Source: Escherichia phage BF15
Length of the DNA: 64,000 bases
Direction: 5' to 3' (one strand)
Sequence record: MW822007.1
Made by a program: the position numbers and the translations under genes. Below, in pieces: positions 27,388 through 35,404 of this stretch (positions are counted from its first letter, which is position 1; each line of letters opens with the position of its first letter). Below the pieces are notes generated by a model. It saw only the letters and a program-made list of their open reading frames with translations, did not search any database and was not told the origin of the DNA.

Positions 27388-29652
27388 TCATAATTTACAG
27401 GATGAACAATCTTCAGCTTTTGGAGTTTCTATTTCATAATCATCAGTACCAGAACCATCACGGGTATTATGATAATAGAAATTTTTTCCGCCAAAATACC
27501 AAAAGTACAAAAGGTCATCAATCATTACAGACATTGGAACCTTTCCTTTTGGAAAAATCTGCGGGTCATAATATGTATTCGCTGAAGCTGATTGACACAC
27601 CCATTTCAGCATAATAGCTACCTGCGTAAGATAAGGTTTATTACCTTTCTTAGCTAATTTCCACGTATAATCATAGAGGTCTATGTTATGCTCAATATTG
27701 GGCACGACTTGATTAAAGGAACCCTCTTTTGATTCTTTAACAGAGACTGGTCCACGTGGAGGCTCGATACCGTTTGTACTGTTAGAAACTTGGGAAGATG
27801 ACTCACATGGCATAAGTGCTGATAATGTGCTATTACGGATGCCAAAGAGCTTAAGGTCTTCCCGCAGCGCCGACCAGTCACAAACGTATTTTGGAGCTGC
27901 GATTTGGTCAATCTTTTTATTGTACCAGTCGATAGGTAATTCGCCTCGAGACCAACGAGTGTCTGAATAATATTCGCAAGGTCCTTTTTCTTTGGCGAGC
28001 TTAATGGATGCTTTAATGAGTCCATACTGTAATCTCTCAAATAGTTCATGTGTTAAATCGTTAGCATCTTCATAAGAAGCAAAGTTACTTGCCAGCCAAG
28101 CTGCATAGTTAGTAACACCTACGCCAAGGTTTCGACGTTTTTTAGCTTTTTCTGCTTCAGGAACTGGATATCCTTGGTAGTCCAAAAGATTATCAAGAGC
28201 GCGAACTTGGACTTCTGCCAATTCATTAATTTTATCTTGGTCTTGCCAATCGAAGTTATCCAACACAAATGCAGACAATGTACACAATCCAATTTCGGCA
28301 TCAGGACTATTCACGTCATTTGTTGGAATAGCAATTTCACAGCACAAGTTACTCTGGCGAATAGGTGCCTTTTCACGAATAAACGGAGTATAGTTATTCG
28401 TATTATCAATGAACTGTACATAAATCCTTGCTGTTCCTGATCGTTCAGTCATGAGCAATTCAAACAGTTCACGGGCTTTAATACGCTTTTTACGAATATT
28501 AGGGTCTTTTTCTGCGGCTTCATATAATTCACGGAAACGGTCTTGGTCTTTAAAATAAGAATAATAAAGCTCGCCACCCATTTCATGTGGACTAAACAAA
28601 GTAATGTAATCGTTCTTTCCAAAACGTTCCATCATCAAATCATTCAGCTGGACACCATAATCCATATGACGGATACGGTTTTCTTCTACGCCTTTGTTAT
28701 TTTTCAAAACGAGAAGATTTTCAACTTCCAAATGCCAAATAGGATAATAAGCAGTAGCAGCGCCGCCACGAATTCCGCCCTGTGAACATGATTTAACAGC
28801 AGTCTGAAAATGTTTCCAAAAAGGAATAACACCAGTATGACGCACTTCACCTGTGCCAATCTTAGAACCTTCGGCACGAATCATACCAACGTTAATGCCG
28901 ATTCCAGCTCGTTTGGAGATATATTCAACAATTGAAGCAGAAGCTTTGTTGATAGACTTCAGCGAATCACCTGCCTCAATAACAACGCATGAACTAAACT
29001 GCCGAGTTGGAGTACGACAACCAGCCATAATAGGAGTTGGCAATGAAATCTGTCGAGTAGATACTGCTTCATAAAAACGAATAACATGTTTTAATCTATC
29101 AACAGGTTCATCTTGATGCAATGCCATTCCAATAGTCATAAATGCAAACTGTGGAGTTTCATAAATTTGACCAGTGGTTTTATCTTTAACTAGATATTTT
29201 TCTTTTAACTGCATCGCCCCGGAATAAGTAAATTCCATATCCCGCTCGTGCTTAATTTTTGATTCTAAAAATGTAATTTCTTCTGCTGAATATTTTGACA
29301 ACAGTTCAGGGTCGTATTTACCTTCATTTACGCAGTAAGAAATATGGTCAATAAATGAACGTGGTTCATATTGCCCGTAAACATGCTTACGAAGAGCGAA
29401 CATTAAACAGCGCGCAGCTACATATTGATAATCAGGCTCTTCAACTGAAATAGAATTCGCAGCAGCCTTAATTACAATGGTTTGAATGTCATCAGTTGTC
29501 ATTCCATCACGGAGATATGATTTAATATTTTCATATAATTCATAAGGATCTACAGATGTTCCTTCAGCTGCCCAAGATAAAACTTTAATAATTTTTTGTG
29601 GGTCAAAGCTTTGAGAAACACCGCTACTTTTGATAACATTAATTAATTGCAT
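27388..29652 (-). CDS. nrdA: Ribonucleotide reductase large subunit
   Basis: 754 aa class I RNR alpha subunit. Confidence 0.95.
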   Translation of the reverse strand: MQLINVIKSSGVSQSFDPQKIIKVLSWAAEGTSVDPYELYENIKSYLRDGMTTDDIQTIVIKAAANSISVEEPDYQYVAARCLMFALRKHVYGQYEPRSFIDHISYCVNEGKYDPELLSKYSAEEITFLESKIKHERDMEFTYSGAMQLKEKYLVKDKTTGQIYETPQFAFMTIGMALHQDEPVDRLKHVIRFYEAVSTRQISLPTPIMAGCRTPTRQFSSCVVIEAGDSLKSINKASASIVEYISKRAGIGINVGMIRAEGSKIGTGEVRHTGVIPFWKHFQTAVKSCSQGGIRGGAATAYYPIWHLEVENLLVLKNNKGVEENRIRHMDYGVQLNDLMMERFGKNDYITLFSPHEMGGELYYSYFKDQDRFRELYEAAEKDPNIRKKRIKARELFELLMTERSGTARIYVQFIDNTNNYTPFIREKAPIRQSNLCCEIAIPTNDVNSPDAEIGLCTLSAFVLDNFDWQDQDKINELAEVQVRALDNLLDYQGYPVPEAEKAKKRRNLGVGVTNYAAWLASNFASYEDANDLTHELFERLQYGLIKASIKLAKEKGPCEYYSDTRWSRGELPIDWYNKKIDQIAAPKYVCDWSALREDLKLFGIRNSTLSALMPCESSSQVSNSTNGIEPPRGPVSVKESKEGSFNQVVPNIEHNIDLYDYTWKLAKKGNKPYLTQVAIMLKWVCQSASANTYYDPQIFPKGKVPMSVMIDDLLYFWYFGGKNFYYHNTRDGSGTDDYEIETPKAEDCSSCKL

Positions 29653-29969
29653 AAGTCCTCAACTTGAAAATCGTCTTTAAACAATCGGTTAACTATATGA
29701 GCTATTATATCACCATGACACGGCTTTGGTTTACATGTGCATCCTAGCCTCATTCCACGTAAAGGCTCTAAATGTGCTTTAGTTATTTCTCCGGATTTAA
29801 TTCGACGTATAAAATCTTTTTTGAATAATTCAATGGCAGCCTCCCGGCTGCCAGCATCTTTACCGACGTAATTTCCCCAAAATGTACCACGGTGAATATT
29901 AACATCAAAGTCGGATTTATATTTATTCACTACCCGGCATAGACGGCCCACGCTGGAATAATTCGTCAT
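29643..29969 (-). CDS. Hypothetical protein (between td and nrdA)
   Basis: 108-aa track ORF. Confidence 0.5.
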
Positions 29970-30186
29970 ATTGTTTTTCCGTTAAAACAGTAATATCATA
30001 ATAACAATCAGAAGAAGTTTTAACTGTGGAAATTTTATTATCAAAATACTCACGAGTCATTTTATGAGTATAATATTTTTTGCCATAAATGATAATAGGC
30101 TGTTCTGGCCCTGGAACTTCTAACTCGCTTGGGTTAGGAAGTGTAAAAAGAACTACACCAGAAGTATCTTTAAATCGTAAAATCAT
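29923..30186 (-). CDS. Hypothetical protein (between td and nrdA)
   Basis: 87-aa track ORF; overlaps the next ORF, start uncertain. Confidence 0.45.
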
Positions 30187-30209
30187 ATATCCTCACAATT
30201 AATAATTAA

Positions 30210-31070
30210 TTACACCGCCATTTTTCCTTTAATAGGAGGGTGTGATTCGTAACCTTTAAGAACGAAATCTTTAGGCCTGAGTTTAAGAACATATTCCAAT
30301 TGTTCTTTAGTAGAAAGATGGCGGAATTTATAAGGCAATCCGCCTATTACCAGTTCACAAAGCTCTTTAGGTTCACGACGTAAAATTTCTTTACATTGTT
30401 CCACGTGATTCATATAGATATGAGTATTACCGCCAGAAAATATCAAATCTCCAGGAATAAGATTACACATCTTAGCTACAATATGAACTAATGCAGCATA
30501 TGATGCAATATTAAATGGAAGACCGAGGAAAACATCTACCGAACGTTGATACCACTGCAAATCCAAATAGCCATTACGCACATTAAACTGATAGAACATA
30601 TGACAAGGCGGTAATGCCATATATTTAAGTTCAGCTGGATTCCACGCAGAAACAATTTGACGCCTATCATTTGGTAGTTTTTTAATACGATCAACAACTT
30701 CTACAATTTGGTCTACACCGCCAAAATCACGCCACTGTTTTCCATAAATTGGACCAAGTTCACCACTATGATATCCTAAATCTTTTGCTTGATTTTCGTA
30801 ATTTTCATCCCAGACTGTTTTGCCTTGAATTAATGAATCATGTTGAATTAATCGCAAATCATTGACATTTGTGCTTCCTGATAAAAACCATATTAGCTCA
30901 GCGATGCAAGCTTTCCAAGCGAGCTTCTTAGTCGTTACTGCAGGAAAACCTTTAGTTAAATCCCAGCGTAATTTAGTACCGAACAAAGCAATTGTTCCTG
31001 TGCCTGTTCGGTCATCGGTTTCATAGCCGTTTTCAAAAATGTCTTTAATTAAATCTTGGTATTGTTTCAT
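30210..31070 (-). CDS. td: Thymidylate synthase, uninterrupted
   Basis: 286 aa contiguous; PPCHMFYQF active-site region; no intron. Confidence 0.95.
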   Translation of the reverse strand: MKQYQDLIKDIFENGYETDDRTGTGTIALFGTKLRWDLTKGFPAVTTKKLAWKACIAELIWFLSGSTNVNDLRLIQHDSLIQGKTVWDENYENQAKDLGYHSGELGPIYGKQWRDFGGVDQIVEVVDRIKKLPNDRRQIVSAWNPAELKYMALPPCHMFYQFNVRNGYLDLQWYQRSVDVFLGLPFNIASYAALVHIVAKMCNLIPGDLIFSGGNTHIYMNHVEQCKEILRREPKELCELVIGGLPYKFRHLSTKEQLEYVLKLRPKDFVLKGYESHPPIKGKMAV

Positions 31071-31115
31071 TTAGTACCTTATATAAATTATAATACATTT
31101 TATGAAGCTAAATAA

Positions 31116-31475
31116 TCAATACGGTTTAGCATCAAATTTTCTTTCGATTTCAGGAGTGAAATATAATTCTTTACCACGCTTGGAAAAGCGACCAATAATA
31201 TGATAATTATTCTCATCAAACGTGATATTGCCAATATCCATAGCTTTCAACCAAATATCGATATTTCTATCCAGCTTTATATCAAAATTCCAATACGGAG
31301 AACTATTACCGAAAATACTGCAAGCGGATTCAGTGAAACAACTGCTATAAATCTTGTCTTTAGGAACTACTAATTGATAGACACCTTTAATAAACTGAGG
31401 ACCCTGCCATTTTGGTTGTTTCGCGTCTTTTTCCAATAGAATAGGGTAATAATTAAAGCTCATATTTTCCGCCAC
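31116..31475 (-). CDS. Hypothetical protein inserted between frd and td
   Basis: 119-aa track ORF with no function I can assign. Confidence 0.55.
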   Translation of the reverse strand: MAENMSFNYYPILLEKDAKQPKWQGPQFIKGVYQLVVPKDKIYSSCFTESACSIFGNSSPYWNFDIKLDRNIDIWLKAMDIGNITFDENNYHIIGRFSKRGKELYFTPEIERKFDAKPY

Positions 31476-31483
31476 GCGTTATT

Positions 31484-32310
<827 letters not shown>

Positions 32311-32318
32311 ATTATCTC

Positions 32319-32654
32319 CTAATATAAAGGATCGGGAACATATCCACTGGCTTTAATCATTTTAATTAACGTTAACATTCCTTTATTAACTGCTCGTGAG
32401 ATTTCATCAAAAACTTCATCACTAAAAAGTTCTAACACACCCTTCTGAACTTTTAATTTACATCCAACGATTTCGTCATCGCCTATAATAAATTCATTTC
32501 CGCCAATTCCACCGAAAAACTTAATTACACCAGTTAACTGTCTTCCACGAGAATATGGGTCGTGTGATAAAGTAATATGAGTCACCCCAGGTACAGTTTT
32601 AAATTGGCAGCGGATGTTTACTTGGGCAATTCCAGTTACGTGAATGTCAGACAT
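32319..32654 (-). CDS. Hypothetical protein
   Basis: 111-aa track ORF. Confidence 0.5.
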   Translation of the reverse strand: MSDIHVTGIAQVNIRCQFKTVPGVTHITLSHDPYSRGRQLTGVIKFFGGIGGNEFIIGDDEIVGCKLKVQKGVLELFSDEVFDEISRAVNKGMLTLIKMIKASGYVPDPLY

Positions 32655-32664
32655 AATATTTTCC

Positions 32665-32907
32665 TCAAACAGACTTTTTCACAATTTTCCAATCAGCTTT
32701 AAACTGATCGACGTCAGAATGGTAAATCCAGAATCCTGCGCTTTCTCCATCCTCATAAAGAGGGCATCCATCGCATTCATCTTCCCATCCCATATCACGC
32801 AAAAGACGTTCAGCTTTTTCAACAAGTTCAGAATCTTTACCGATGATATTAAAATACCATTTACCCCTAACTTCTGAATCTTTAATGCTCTGACGTTGTA
32901 ATCTCAT
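32665..32907 (-). CDS. Hypothetical protein
   Basis: 80-aa track ORF preceded by an early promoter. Confidence 0.5.
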   Translation of the reverse strand: MRLQRQSIKDSEVRGKWYFNIIGKDSELVEKAERLLRDMGWEDECDGCPLYEDGESAGFWIYHSDVDQFKADWKIVKKSV

Positions 32908-32932
32908 TTTATTCTCCTTAGTTGATAGGGTA

Positions 32933-32962
32933 ATAATATCACACTACTACCCTACTGTAAAC
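32933..32962 (-). promoter_or_regulatory. T4-type early promoter
   Basis: Minus strand GTTTACAGTAGGGTAGTAGTGTGATATTAT. Confidence 0.5.
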
Positions 32963-33327
32963 TACTTTTTGAAAGTTTTTCGCAAAAGTTCAATGATTTC
33001 ATCTACATTGTTTTCGTCTACAATGCAATGAATTTTTGTTACGCCAGAAATCTTGTCTTCGACTTCATCTTCTTCAGAAATCGGTTCTTTATACTCGCGG
33101 AAACAATGAAATTCGTCTTCGCAGACGTTGAAGTAAAAATGCTTTCCATTTGCGCATTCAATGTGTTTTATTACTCTAAATCCATCAGCAGAGAAAGCTT
33201 CTTTAACTTCAAACCATCCACCATTTTCTTGAATAATTTTAACTATTGATGAATTAGAACGTGGGCGATAATTAATAAATGTATTAATAAGTCTTGGAAC
33301 AAGCTCATACTTTTTGCCAATATACAT
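32962..33327 (-). CDS. Hypothetical protein
   Basis: 121-aa track ORF. Confidence 0.5.
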   Translation of the reverse strand: MYIGKKYELVPRLINTFINYRPRSNSSIVKIIQENGGWFEVKEAFSADGFRVIKHIECANGKHFYFNVCEDEFHCFREYKEPISEEDEVEDKISGVTKIHCIVDENNVDEIIELLRKTFKK

Positions 33328-33370
33328 TGCGTTTTCCTCATTTTAACGGGGCTTGATAGCCCCTTGATAA

Positions 33371-33619
33371 TTACTGCTCAATAAATCCTGTGTAAAATTC
33401 TACATCTTCAGCATCCATACCGTCACAATATTCATTAACCATAAATTGTTTAAGACGATTTAAAGGGCCTTCAATAACAACTGAAACATTGCAATTGGGG
33501 TCATTTAGTGCGCTTGTAATACGGAGTTCAGGATAACGATTACGAATAATTTCTTCAATATATTCAAAATCAACAACATCAATATCAATTTTAGCCATGT
33601 TATTTTCCTCTTTAATCAT
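33371..33619 (-). CDS. Hypothetical protein
   Basis: 82-aa track ORF. Confidence 0.5.
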
Positions 33620-33742: not shown

Positions 33743-34651
33743 TTAAAGGTCATTCAAAAGGTCATCCAGGTCCGTGTCATCAGCACTAGATGAACTGCCA
33801 GAGCTTGAGCTCATAAAATCATCTTCAGTTTTTGTTTTGAAGTCATCAACATTGAATGCATCCAAATCATCAGCAACTTTATCAGCTTTCTTAGCGGCAG
33901 TTGCTGCGGCACCACCCATAGCAGCAGTTCCCATAACTTGACTGAACTTAGTGCTCAGTTCTTCAAACGATTTGAATTTATCTTTAGAAGTCATTTCAGA
34001 AAGGTCAACCATTTGTTCGAACAATTCTTTCTGGAAAGATTCATCATCAATGTTTGGAATCGCAGATTGATTCAGGAATTTAGATTCGTCGTAGTTACTA
34101 AAACCAGAAACTTGTTTAACTTTCAGTACAAAGTTAGCACCTTCCCACGGACAAGTTACATCAACCGGAGTTTCACCCATTTCAACATCAACTGCAATCA
34201 TTGCATTGATTTTATCCCAGATTTTCTTACCGAAACGGTATTTAAATACTTTACCTTCATTTTCTGGAGCAGCTGGGTCTTTTACTACAAGAATGTTAGC
34301 CCAGTAAGAAGTTTTACGTTTAACAAGACCGTACTCTTTATTGTCAGTGTTGTACAAATCATTTTTACTGATGTACTGACATACTGGACAAGAATCGTAA
34401 TCACCGTGGGTAGATGAACAGTTTTCAATATACCATTTACCATTTTTCTTGAAACCGTGATTTACAAGAATTGCGAATGGCGCTTGTTCATCATTTTTAG
34501 ACGGAAGAAAACGAATTACTGCTTGACCGTTACCCGCATTATCGAGTTTCAGTTTCCACTCGCCTTTATCTTCAGAAGAAAAACCACCTTTATTTCCAGC
34601 CAGTTTAGCCATTTGTGCAGCGAGTTCAGCAGTAGATTTACGTTTAAACAT
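33743..34651 (-). CDS. 32: Single-stranded DNA-binding protein gp32
   Basis: 302 aa; [17 protein letters not shown]... with Cys/His zinc site and acidic Ser/Asp-rich C-terminus. Confidence 0.95.
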
Positions 34652-34718
34652 TTTTATTTCCTTTTTAATTTAATTAACAGTTGGTGCTATGACGATGTAT
34701 GACCTCATAGCTGGTCAG
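34652..34718 (-). promoter_or_regulatory. Gene 32 translational operator: pseudoknot plus AU-rich unstructured gp32 binding region
   Basis: Minus strand GCUGACCAGCUAUGAGGUCAUACAUCGUCAUAGCAC can form an H-type pseudoknot, then UUAAUUAAAUUAAAAAGGAAAUAAAAAUG. Confidence 0.6.
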
Positions 34719-34750
34719 TGAGATAATTATAATCTATTTATAATAAGCAA

Positions 34751-35404
34751 TTAATACTTGCAAGATTTCACAGTTTCAATGAAAACACTTTTAGCTTTCT
34801 GTGAATCAATATTTAAAATTTTTCTATAAGCCTTTAACTTTATAGAATAATTATTCCAGACTAAATTATCAGTCTGTTCATCATGTTTATCAATTATATT
34901 TAAAAACGAATCAAGCAAGATAAACGTCTCAAACGAAATTATATTCGATTGAAGTAGTTTAAAAATATAACTTGATTGAACTTTTGGATTATACTCAAAG
35001 ATTTCTTTAAAAGCAGAAACTTCAACTTTTTTACTAAAATAATAAATGTTGCGAATATCTTCTTCAAACTTAAATTTAATTTGCTTTAAGCGTCCGATAT
35101 ATTCACGATAAAACACAAGTGCATCAGCGTCAGAGATGTCACCAATCCAAGCATCCTGGTTAGCAACAAGATTGCTTATAAAGATTAAAGCAAGTTCCTT
35201 TAATTTATATTTTTCTGATAACTTCTGGAAAAAATACTTATCCCTTCGCTTTTGATAAGCGGCATCAGACACCCGCATGCACCAATTATACTTAATTACA
35301 TCATACTTTCCATTCATATGTTGTTTTATCATTAAGTATAATTTATAAACTGATTTACCATCAATGTATCTTTCACCACCAGCAGGCATGCGGAGTTTAA
35401 TCAT
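34751..35404 (-). CDS. 59: Helicase loader gp59
   Basis: 217 aa as in T4; between 33 and 32. Confidence 0.85.
   Translation of the reverse strand: MIKLRMPAGGERYIDGKSVYKLYLMIKQHMNGKYDVIKYNWCMRVSDAAYQKRRDKYFFQKLSEKYKLKELALIFISNLVANQDAWIGDISDADALVFYREYIGRLKQIKFKFEEDIRNIYYFSKKVEVSAFKEIFEYNPKVQSSYIFKLLQSNIISFETFILLDSFLNIIDKHDEQTDNLVWNNYSIKLKAYRKILNIDSQKAKSVFIETVKSCKY

Follow-up and report, generated by a model that had tools for sequence, protein, structure and literature searches.

td.1, a conserved hypothetical gene between frd and td of T-even phages, and its probable deletion in T4

The window analyzed here is a 64,000-nt stretch of DNA from Escherichia phage BF15 (MW822007.1). Overall it is of Tequatrovirus type, with ∼96% identity across 20 kb to LYE-01, GEP001 and IME340. 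Between the genes for dihydrofolate reductase (frd) and thymidylate synthase (td), the minus strand contains an uninterrupted open reading frame (ORF) at positions 31116–31475, which encodes 119 residues when counted from a GTG codon. An earlier note, made from the letters of this DNA, had drawn attention to this ORF, and both the ORF and the translation quoted there are confirmed at 31116–31475 (minus strand). The upstream neighbor, frd (31484–32065, minus strand), is a 193-aa ORF, and the downstream neighbor, td (30210–31070, minus strand), is an uninterrupted ORF of 286 aa; both carry these names in matching records. Since the td reading frame is uninterrupted, the gene lacks a group I intron in this phage.

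The GTG at 31475 is not conserved, being replaced by CTG in JQD51 and by GCG in an IMG/VR contig, and it was rejected as the start of the gene. The sequence GGCGGAAAATATG, on the other hand, is invariant and identically spaced in six other copies, although its run of A is one base shorter in the IMG/VR contig. The homologous gene of phage T2H, td.1, is annotated in GenBank from the ATG, so that the coding sequence most likely covers 31116–31463 (115 aa plus the stop codon), starting from the conserved ATG at 31463, 20 nt from the frd stop codon. This assignment draws on the ORF, the T2H annotation and the match to PHROG 1928 described below. A Shine-Dalgarno-like GGCGGA block (31468–31473, minus strand) ends 4 nt upstream of this ATG, and is identical in seven of the seven aligned copies; it is the putative ribosome-binding site of td.1.

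The 45-nt spacer between td.1 and td (31071–31115, minus strand) contains the AAGG ribosome-binding site of td and a promoter-like element. The latter, predicted by a consensus scan, is sigma-70-like (TTGATT, 18 nt, TATTAT; 31119–31090). By eye, a block of ∼30 nt (31081–31111, minus strand) also includes a MotA-box-like aGCTTCA, followed 12 nt later by TAATTT. This block is found in Tequatrovirus copies and is absent from the Mosigvirus-type copies of PHB12 and JQD51. No terminators were found around td.1, and a search of 29500–33000 against Rfam revealed no conserved RNA structure near the gene; the only match in that interval, to a Drosophila lncRNA family, scored 22 bits, below the gathering score of 50, and is put down to chance.

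The surroundings of frd contain further small genes. Between frd and gene 32 (32065–33619) there are five short ORFs, of 81, 111, 80, 121 and 82 aa, which belong to PHROGs 3183, 3566, 1254, 622 and 1764 and have no known function. This stretch varies among close relatives, as the record of T4 strain 147 annotates only Frd.1, Frd.2 and Frd.3 there. Further along (33743–35404), a 302-aa gene 32 ORF is found, with a 217-aa ORF, which by its size could be gp59, ∼100 nt upstream. In T4 strain 147, segG is located between genes 32 and 59. The window has no room for segG between gene 32 and the 217-aa ORF, and the phage therefore appears to lack it, as presumably does T2.

The ORF is an already annotated and widely conserved hypothetical gene, and not a new kind of element or system. 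DNA with at least 80% nucleotide identity to it is present in 362 phage records, 328 of which match at 95–99%; these phages include T2, RB3, RB5–10, RB14, RB27, RB32, RB51, HY01 and Shfl2. The T2H record (AY262132.2) names the gene td.1, with the product "hypothetical protein" (ABI48932.1), and RB32ORF229c in RB14 and RB51 is the same gene. It is a hypothetical protein in ∼360 Tequatrovirus and Mosigvirus records, and a literature search for td.1 or RB32ORF229c returned no matching papers. The protein matches the profile of PHROG 1928 (function unknown) over its full length (E = 9.5e-36; residues 8–115 of the 119-aa form against positions 2–125/126), and the gene is placed as in that family, following frd immediately and preceding td on the same strand.

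Some records give the gene wrong or inconsistent product names, namely "putative homing endonuclease", "dihydrofolate reductase" and "glucose-1-phosphate adenylyltransferase". Mislabeled genes in the frd–td slot occur in MZ501066, MZ501089, MZ501106, PV204681, OQ466432, OK272484, OK272473, PQ571308, NC_054937 and MH809535; in PV204681 the gene names seem to be shifted by one gene.

Among 1.84 billion proteins, only 17 cluster representatives matched Td.1, the weakest being a marginal match to an 838-aa protein (E = 9e-4). A broad alignment of the family (A3) had no block conserved enough for scanning; with another (A4), no relatives were detected in 185,579 bacterial and archaeal genomes, and viral contigs yielded nothing but further copies of the gene. 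All 10 of these IMG/VR loci are on large phage contigs (50–178 kb), seven of them at 170–178 kb, similar to complete T4-like genomes. By these sequence searches, the family is restricted to T4-like phages.

The pattern of substitutions indicates strong purifying selection on td.1. Between the window and PHB12 there are 31 synonymous and 10 non-synonymous differences (dS 0.79, dN 0.036, dN/dS 0.046), and the closer pairs show the same bias (8 and 1 between the window and T2H; 10 and 1 between PHB12 and JQD51). At unsaturated distances, dN/dS is ∼0.03–0.05. Reading frame, length and position are all kept in homologues down to 26% identity. The chance that the ORF is an accidental open frame in a non-coding spacer is consequently negligible: an AT-rich context is all that speaks for it, and it is contradicted by the purifying selection, by protein conservation down to 26% identity, by a confident fold prediction and by the conservation of the ribosome-binding site together with its ATG. 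We refute it on these four grounds.

Outside Tequatrovirus, a 92% identical copy of td.1 is found in Mosigvirus PHB12, and diverged homologues (26–46% identity, tblastn) were detected in Kanagawavirus CIP9 and EcS1, Jiaodavirus JD18, Marfavirus F48, Moonvirus Merlin and Winklervirus CHI14. We compared the gene maps of T2H, CIP9, JD18, F48, Merlin, CHI14, PHB12 and two metagenomic contigs (L014 and L015). In every one of these maps, td.1 lies directly after frd and before td, usually overlapping the frd stop codon.

In CIP9, F48, Merlin and CHI14, td.1 is followed by a second ORF of ∼118 aa; the two are paralogues, as judged from an hhalign probability of 99.1%, a common PHROG (1928) and shared motifs. 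Both subfamilies match the PHROG 1928 profile at E ∼1e-35 and have the motifs QxKW, HG(I/L)Y and GRFxKxGxE..F in common. In the paralogue, however, the QKKW motif is followed by an insertion of ∼20 residues, and the C-terminal tail is missing. The tandem paralogue was located at L003:2832–3191, L005:2790–3143, L006:2787–3134, L007:2814–3188 and L015:4332–4673. It is present in 124 phage records, including Karamvirus CC31, Salmonella phage S16, Pectobacterium phage PM2 and Serratia phage Muldoon, and adjoins td in Kanagawa-, Marfa-, Moon-, Winkler-, Karam- and Gelderlandvirus. The full string of frd, td.1, paralogue, a 68/69-aa gene and td is seen in CIP9 and a metagenomic contig. Seven or more further genera of T4-like phages have td.1 and a tandem paralogue in this slot directly after frd. 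Tequatrovirus has only the td.1 subfamily, and the window accordingly has a single copy without the paralogue.

A comparison of frd–td junctions across T4-like genomes, as the earlier note had proposed, thus finds td.1 after frd in other genera, and it distinguishes three states within Tequatrovirus. The first, with td.1, is that of the window and T2 (362 records). In the second (∼137–147 records), the slot holds only a 68-aa gene (PHROG 9550), represented by g234c of Yersinia phage fPS-90. The third is the empty junction of T4, with roughly 20 records by subtraction. The 68-aa gene, whose function is unknown, is unrelated to td.1, and its ends overlap both neighbors. It was located in fPS-90 (L010:1814–2020), in Shigella phage SH7 (L011) and in Kanagawavirus CIP9 (CIP9_059, L003:3188–3394), where it lies just upstream of td and is 68% identical to the fPS-90 gene. 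In SH7 one A too many in an A-run disrupts it, owing either to decay into a pseudogene or to a sequencing error, and in PYPS2T the gene is called "flagellar biosynthesis protein".

In T4 strain 147, the frd stop codon and the td start codon overlap as ATGA with no ORF between them, in keeping with the earlier note, which has the two genes abutting or overlapping in T4. Its remark that the ORF is extra relative to T4 is also borne out: profiles of the td.1 family, run against a six-frame translation of the complete genome of strain 147, gave nothing better than E = 0.4, and the same search on the window gave exactly one match (E = 6e-48). With the gene absent from T4 and a coding signal present in its homologues, the observation itself stands.

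The description of the ORF as "inserted", however, has the polarity reversed. Two 12-nt direct repeats flank the gene in the window: the left copy (31479–31490; TTATTTCATTTA on the plus strand) spans the frd stop codon and the right copy (31062–31073; TTGTTTCATTTA on the plus strand) spans the td start codon. They agree at 11 of 12 bases and are 417 nt apart, which is precisely the size difference between the window and T4 (901 versus 484 bp). The T4 junction, ...TATAAATGAAACAATACC, retains a single copy of the repeat. Cutting the 417 bp that separate the repeats out of the window sequence yields this junction, exactly as recombination between the repeats would produce it. Because the same slot is occupied in many genera and what T4 is missing is a repeat-bounded segment of 417 bp, td.1 would have been lost by T4 and not gained here. 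The parsimonious reading of these sequences is that td.1 is ancestral and the T4 junction derived by deletion. Since T4 does without any family member, the gene is dispensable. We are almost certain that td.1 is an old, vertically inherited and dispensable gene of the frd–td operon, belonging to PHROG 1928 and deleted in T4.

The earlier note had also offered two origins for the ORF, an accessory gene or the remnant of a mobile element. The first holds in the sense that the gene is dispensable; the second is not supported, given the fixed position and the lack of a nuclease motif or fold. That a homing endonuclease or its remnant was inserted between frd and td would fit the label "putative homing endonuclease" on some BASEL-collection records, and also the presence or absence of td.1 among close relatives, at a distance of ∼0.6 kb from the I-TevI target in td. 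However, no GIY-YIG, HNH, LAGLIDADG or other nuclease domain was found with Pfam, NCBIfam or PHROG, and no PD-(D/E)XK or other nuclease motif was detected in the family (Pfam on 21 members, NCBIfam, PHROG). The structural matches of the Td.1 model include no nuclease fold, and the Seg and Mob proteins of T4 are roughly twice as large as the 115-aa Td.1. Its distribution is not sporadic, with the same slot and gradual divergence in many genera, and the variable presence is explained by the repeat-mediated deletion in T4. With motif, fold, size and distribution all against it, a mobile origin is rejected as very improbable.

The end of td.1 is located ∼0.6 kb from the insertion site of the td intron, and I-TevI-mediated co-conversion extends up to ∼2 kb (Wilson and Edgell, PMC2790892). 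Using a chimeric BLAST query that joined td.1 to the first 400 nt of the I-TevI gene, we found I-TevI in 79 of the 362 td.1-positive records (22%) and in ∼118 of roughly 157 td.1-negative Tequatrovirus records (∼75%), both being rough counts that ignore phylogeny. They are consistent with a linkage between intron presence and td.1 absence. The two do coexist, for example in RB3 and IME340.

Td.1 matches no family in Pfam, NCBIfam or PADLOC, in agreement with the remark of the earlier note that it has no recognizable motif. A search of 21 family members against Pfam (E ≤5) returned nothing but three unrelated single matches, and a PDB profile search with the Td.1 sequence gave only a chance match (E = 0.89). 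We modeled Td.1 with AlphaFold2 from a 21-sequence alignment (pLDDT 81.4, pTM 0.78). The model has strands at residues 6–12, 27–34, 48–50/62–64, 80–82, 86–96 and 99–104, and a helix at 68–77. With a pI of ∼8.5 and 20 aromatic residues among 115, Td.1 is predicted to be a soluble, slightly basic, aromatic-rich protein that forms a small β-barrel with one helix. The order of elements in the model (β1-β2-β3-helix-β4-β5) is that of the OB fold, a candidate fold class for Td.1, and its weak structural matches in the PDB are mostly OB-fold DNA-binding domains (Teb1, RPA, SSB, Stn1/Ten1, MCM). Matches in BFVD were to uncharacterized proteins only, those with named sources coming from T4-like phages.

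Eleven residues are invariant across both subfamilies (M1, L9, Q16, W19, G27, Y29, G91, R92, F93, K95 and G97), and E99, F102 and E107 are nearly invariant. The conserved acidic positions of the family are E99 and E107 only, and the conserved residues show none of the H/C/S/D patterns typical of an active site. Such a pattern is more in line with a binding protein than with an enzyme. W19, Y29, R92, F93 and K95 could form a nucleic-acid-binding face, a suggestion that comes from sequence conservation.

The gene would be transcribed together with frd and td, and translated from its own ribosome-binding site in the window, or from a start codon overlapping the frd stop codon in other genera. The role that we favor for Td.1 is that of a non-enzymatic binding module co-produced with dihydrofolate reductase and thymidylate synthase. 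It would bind either a nucleic acid or some protein of the phage machinery for deoxynucleotide synthesis and replication, and would do so through a putative patch consisting of Q16 and W19 in the first loop, Y29 in strand 2, and the G-R-F-x-K-x-G segment of the last hairpin (residues 91–97). T4 would have lost the gene when recombination of the 12-nt repeats, one at the stop codon of frd and the other at the start codon of td, deleted what lies between. The binding-module mechanism taken singly is possible, and we put it forward tentatively. The explanation as a whole, which combines the operon gene, the binding module and the deletion in T4, seems to us marginally probable.

The main rival to the binding module is a host-directed accessory protein, active in counter-defence or host takeover, whose location beside frd and td would reflect nothing but its history. 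T-even phages encode numerous small early proteins that are important in certain hosts only, and Td.1 is likewise small, found only in phages and dispensable in T4. The Tequatrovirus slot is polymorphic (td.1, the unrelated 68-aa gene, or nothing), and the small ORFs nearby are also of unknown function. Counter-defence genes are, however, usually fast-evolving and mobile in position, and both the very strong purifying selection on td.1 (dN/dS 0.03–0.05) and its fixed position across genera argue somewhat against such a role. The lack of a PADLOC or Pfam match also counts against it, although both cover anti-defence proteins poorly; PADLOC in particular covers host defence proteins and not phage counter-defence, so that its negative says little. 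On balance, a host-directed role is a possibility that we regard as rather doubtful.

A basic, aromatic-rich small barrel that is tightly tied to its operon, with S1-like and OB domains among its weak structural matches, could also be an RNA-binding regulator that controls the translation or stability of the frd-td-nrd mRNA. Against this, none of the RNA-binding families matches Td.1 significantly in sequence or structure, the search for conserved RNA structures near the gene found none, and T4 regulates the same genes without td.1. We consider such a regulator decidedly improbable.

If Td.1 is a binding module, a more specific role can be imagined. The dNTP-synthesizing enzymes of T4 reportedly form a complex linked to gp32, according to work of the Mathews laboratory. 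The basis for associating Td.1 with the dNTP-synthetase complex is its operon position and the overlap of its start with the frd stop codon in other genera. Td.1, together with its paralogue, might be a non-catalytic OB-like adaptor that couples the phage dihydrofolate reductase (DHFR) and thymidylate synthase (TS), or that anchors the dNTP complex at the replication fork by way of ssDNA or gp32; we think this unlikely. Fusions of DHFR and TS occur in protozoa, and an adaptor of this kind, if real, would be their counterpart made of separate polypeptides, one that T4 has dispensed with.

The textbook overlap of frd and td in T4 appears to be the rarest junction state (roughly 20 records, by subtraction) and a derived one. 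This corrects a T4-centered view of the region, as most relatives carry td.1 and more distant genera have up to three small genes at the junction. The td.1 gene is one more strongly conserved, uncharacterized gene of the T-even nucleotide-metabolism operon that merits experiment, and several of its database labels are wrong.

The closest known counterpart is td.1 of T2H, which is the same gene in the same position between frd and td, with 97.5% nucleotide identity and one amino acid difference in 115 residues (S2 in the window, N2 in T2H); nothing else material differs. Like OB-fold domains, the Td.1 model is predicted to have conserved aromatic and basic residues in loop 1 and in its final hairpin. 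Td.1 resembles Seg, Mob and I-TevI only in being present or absent among close relatives and in lying where co-conversion driven by endonucleases tends to occur. Unlike these endonucleases, Td.1 has no catalytic motif or fold, is half their size, keeps a fixed position and is under strong purifying selection.
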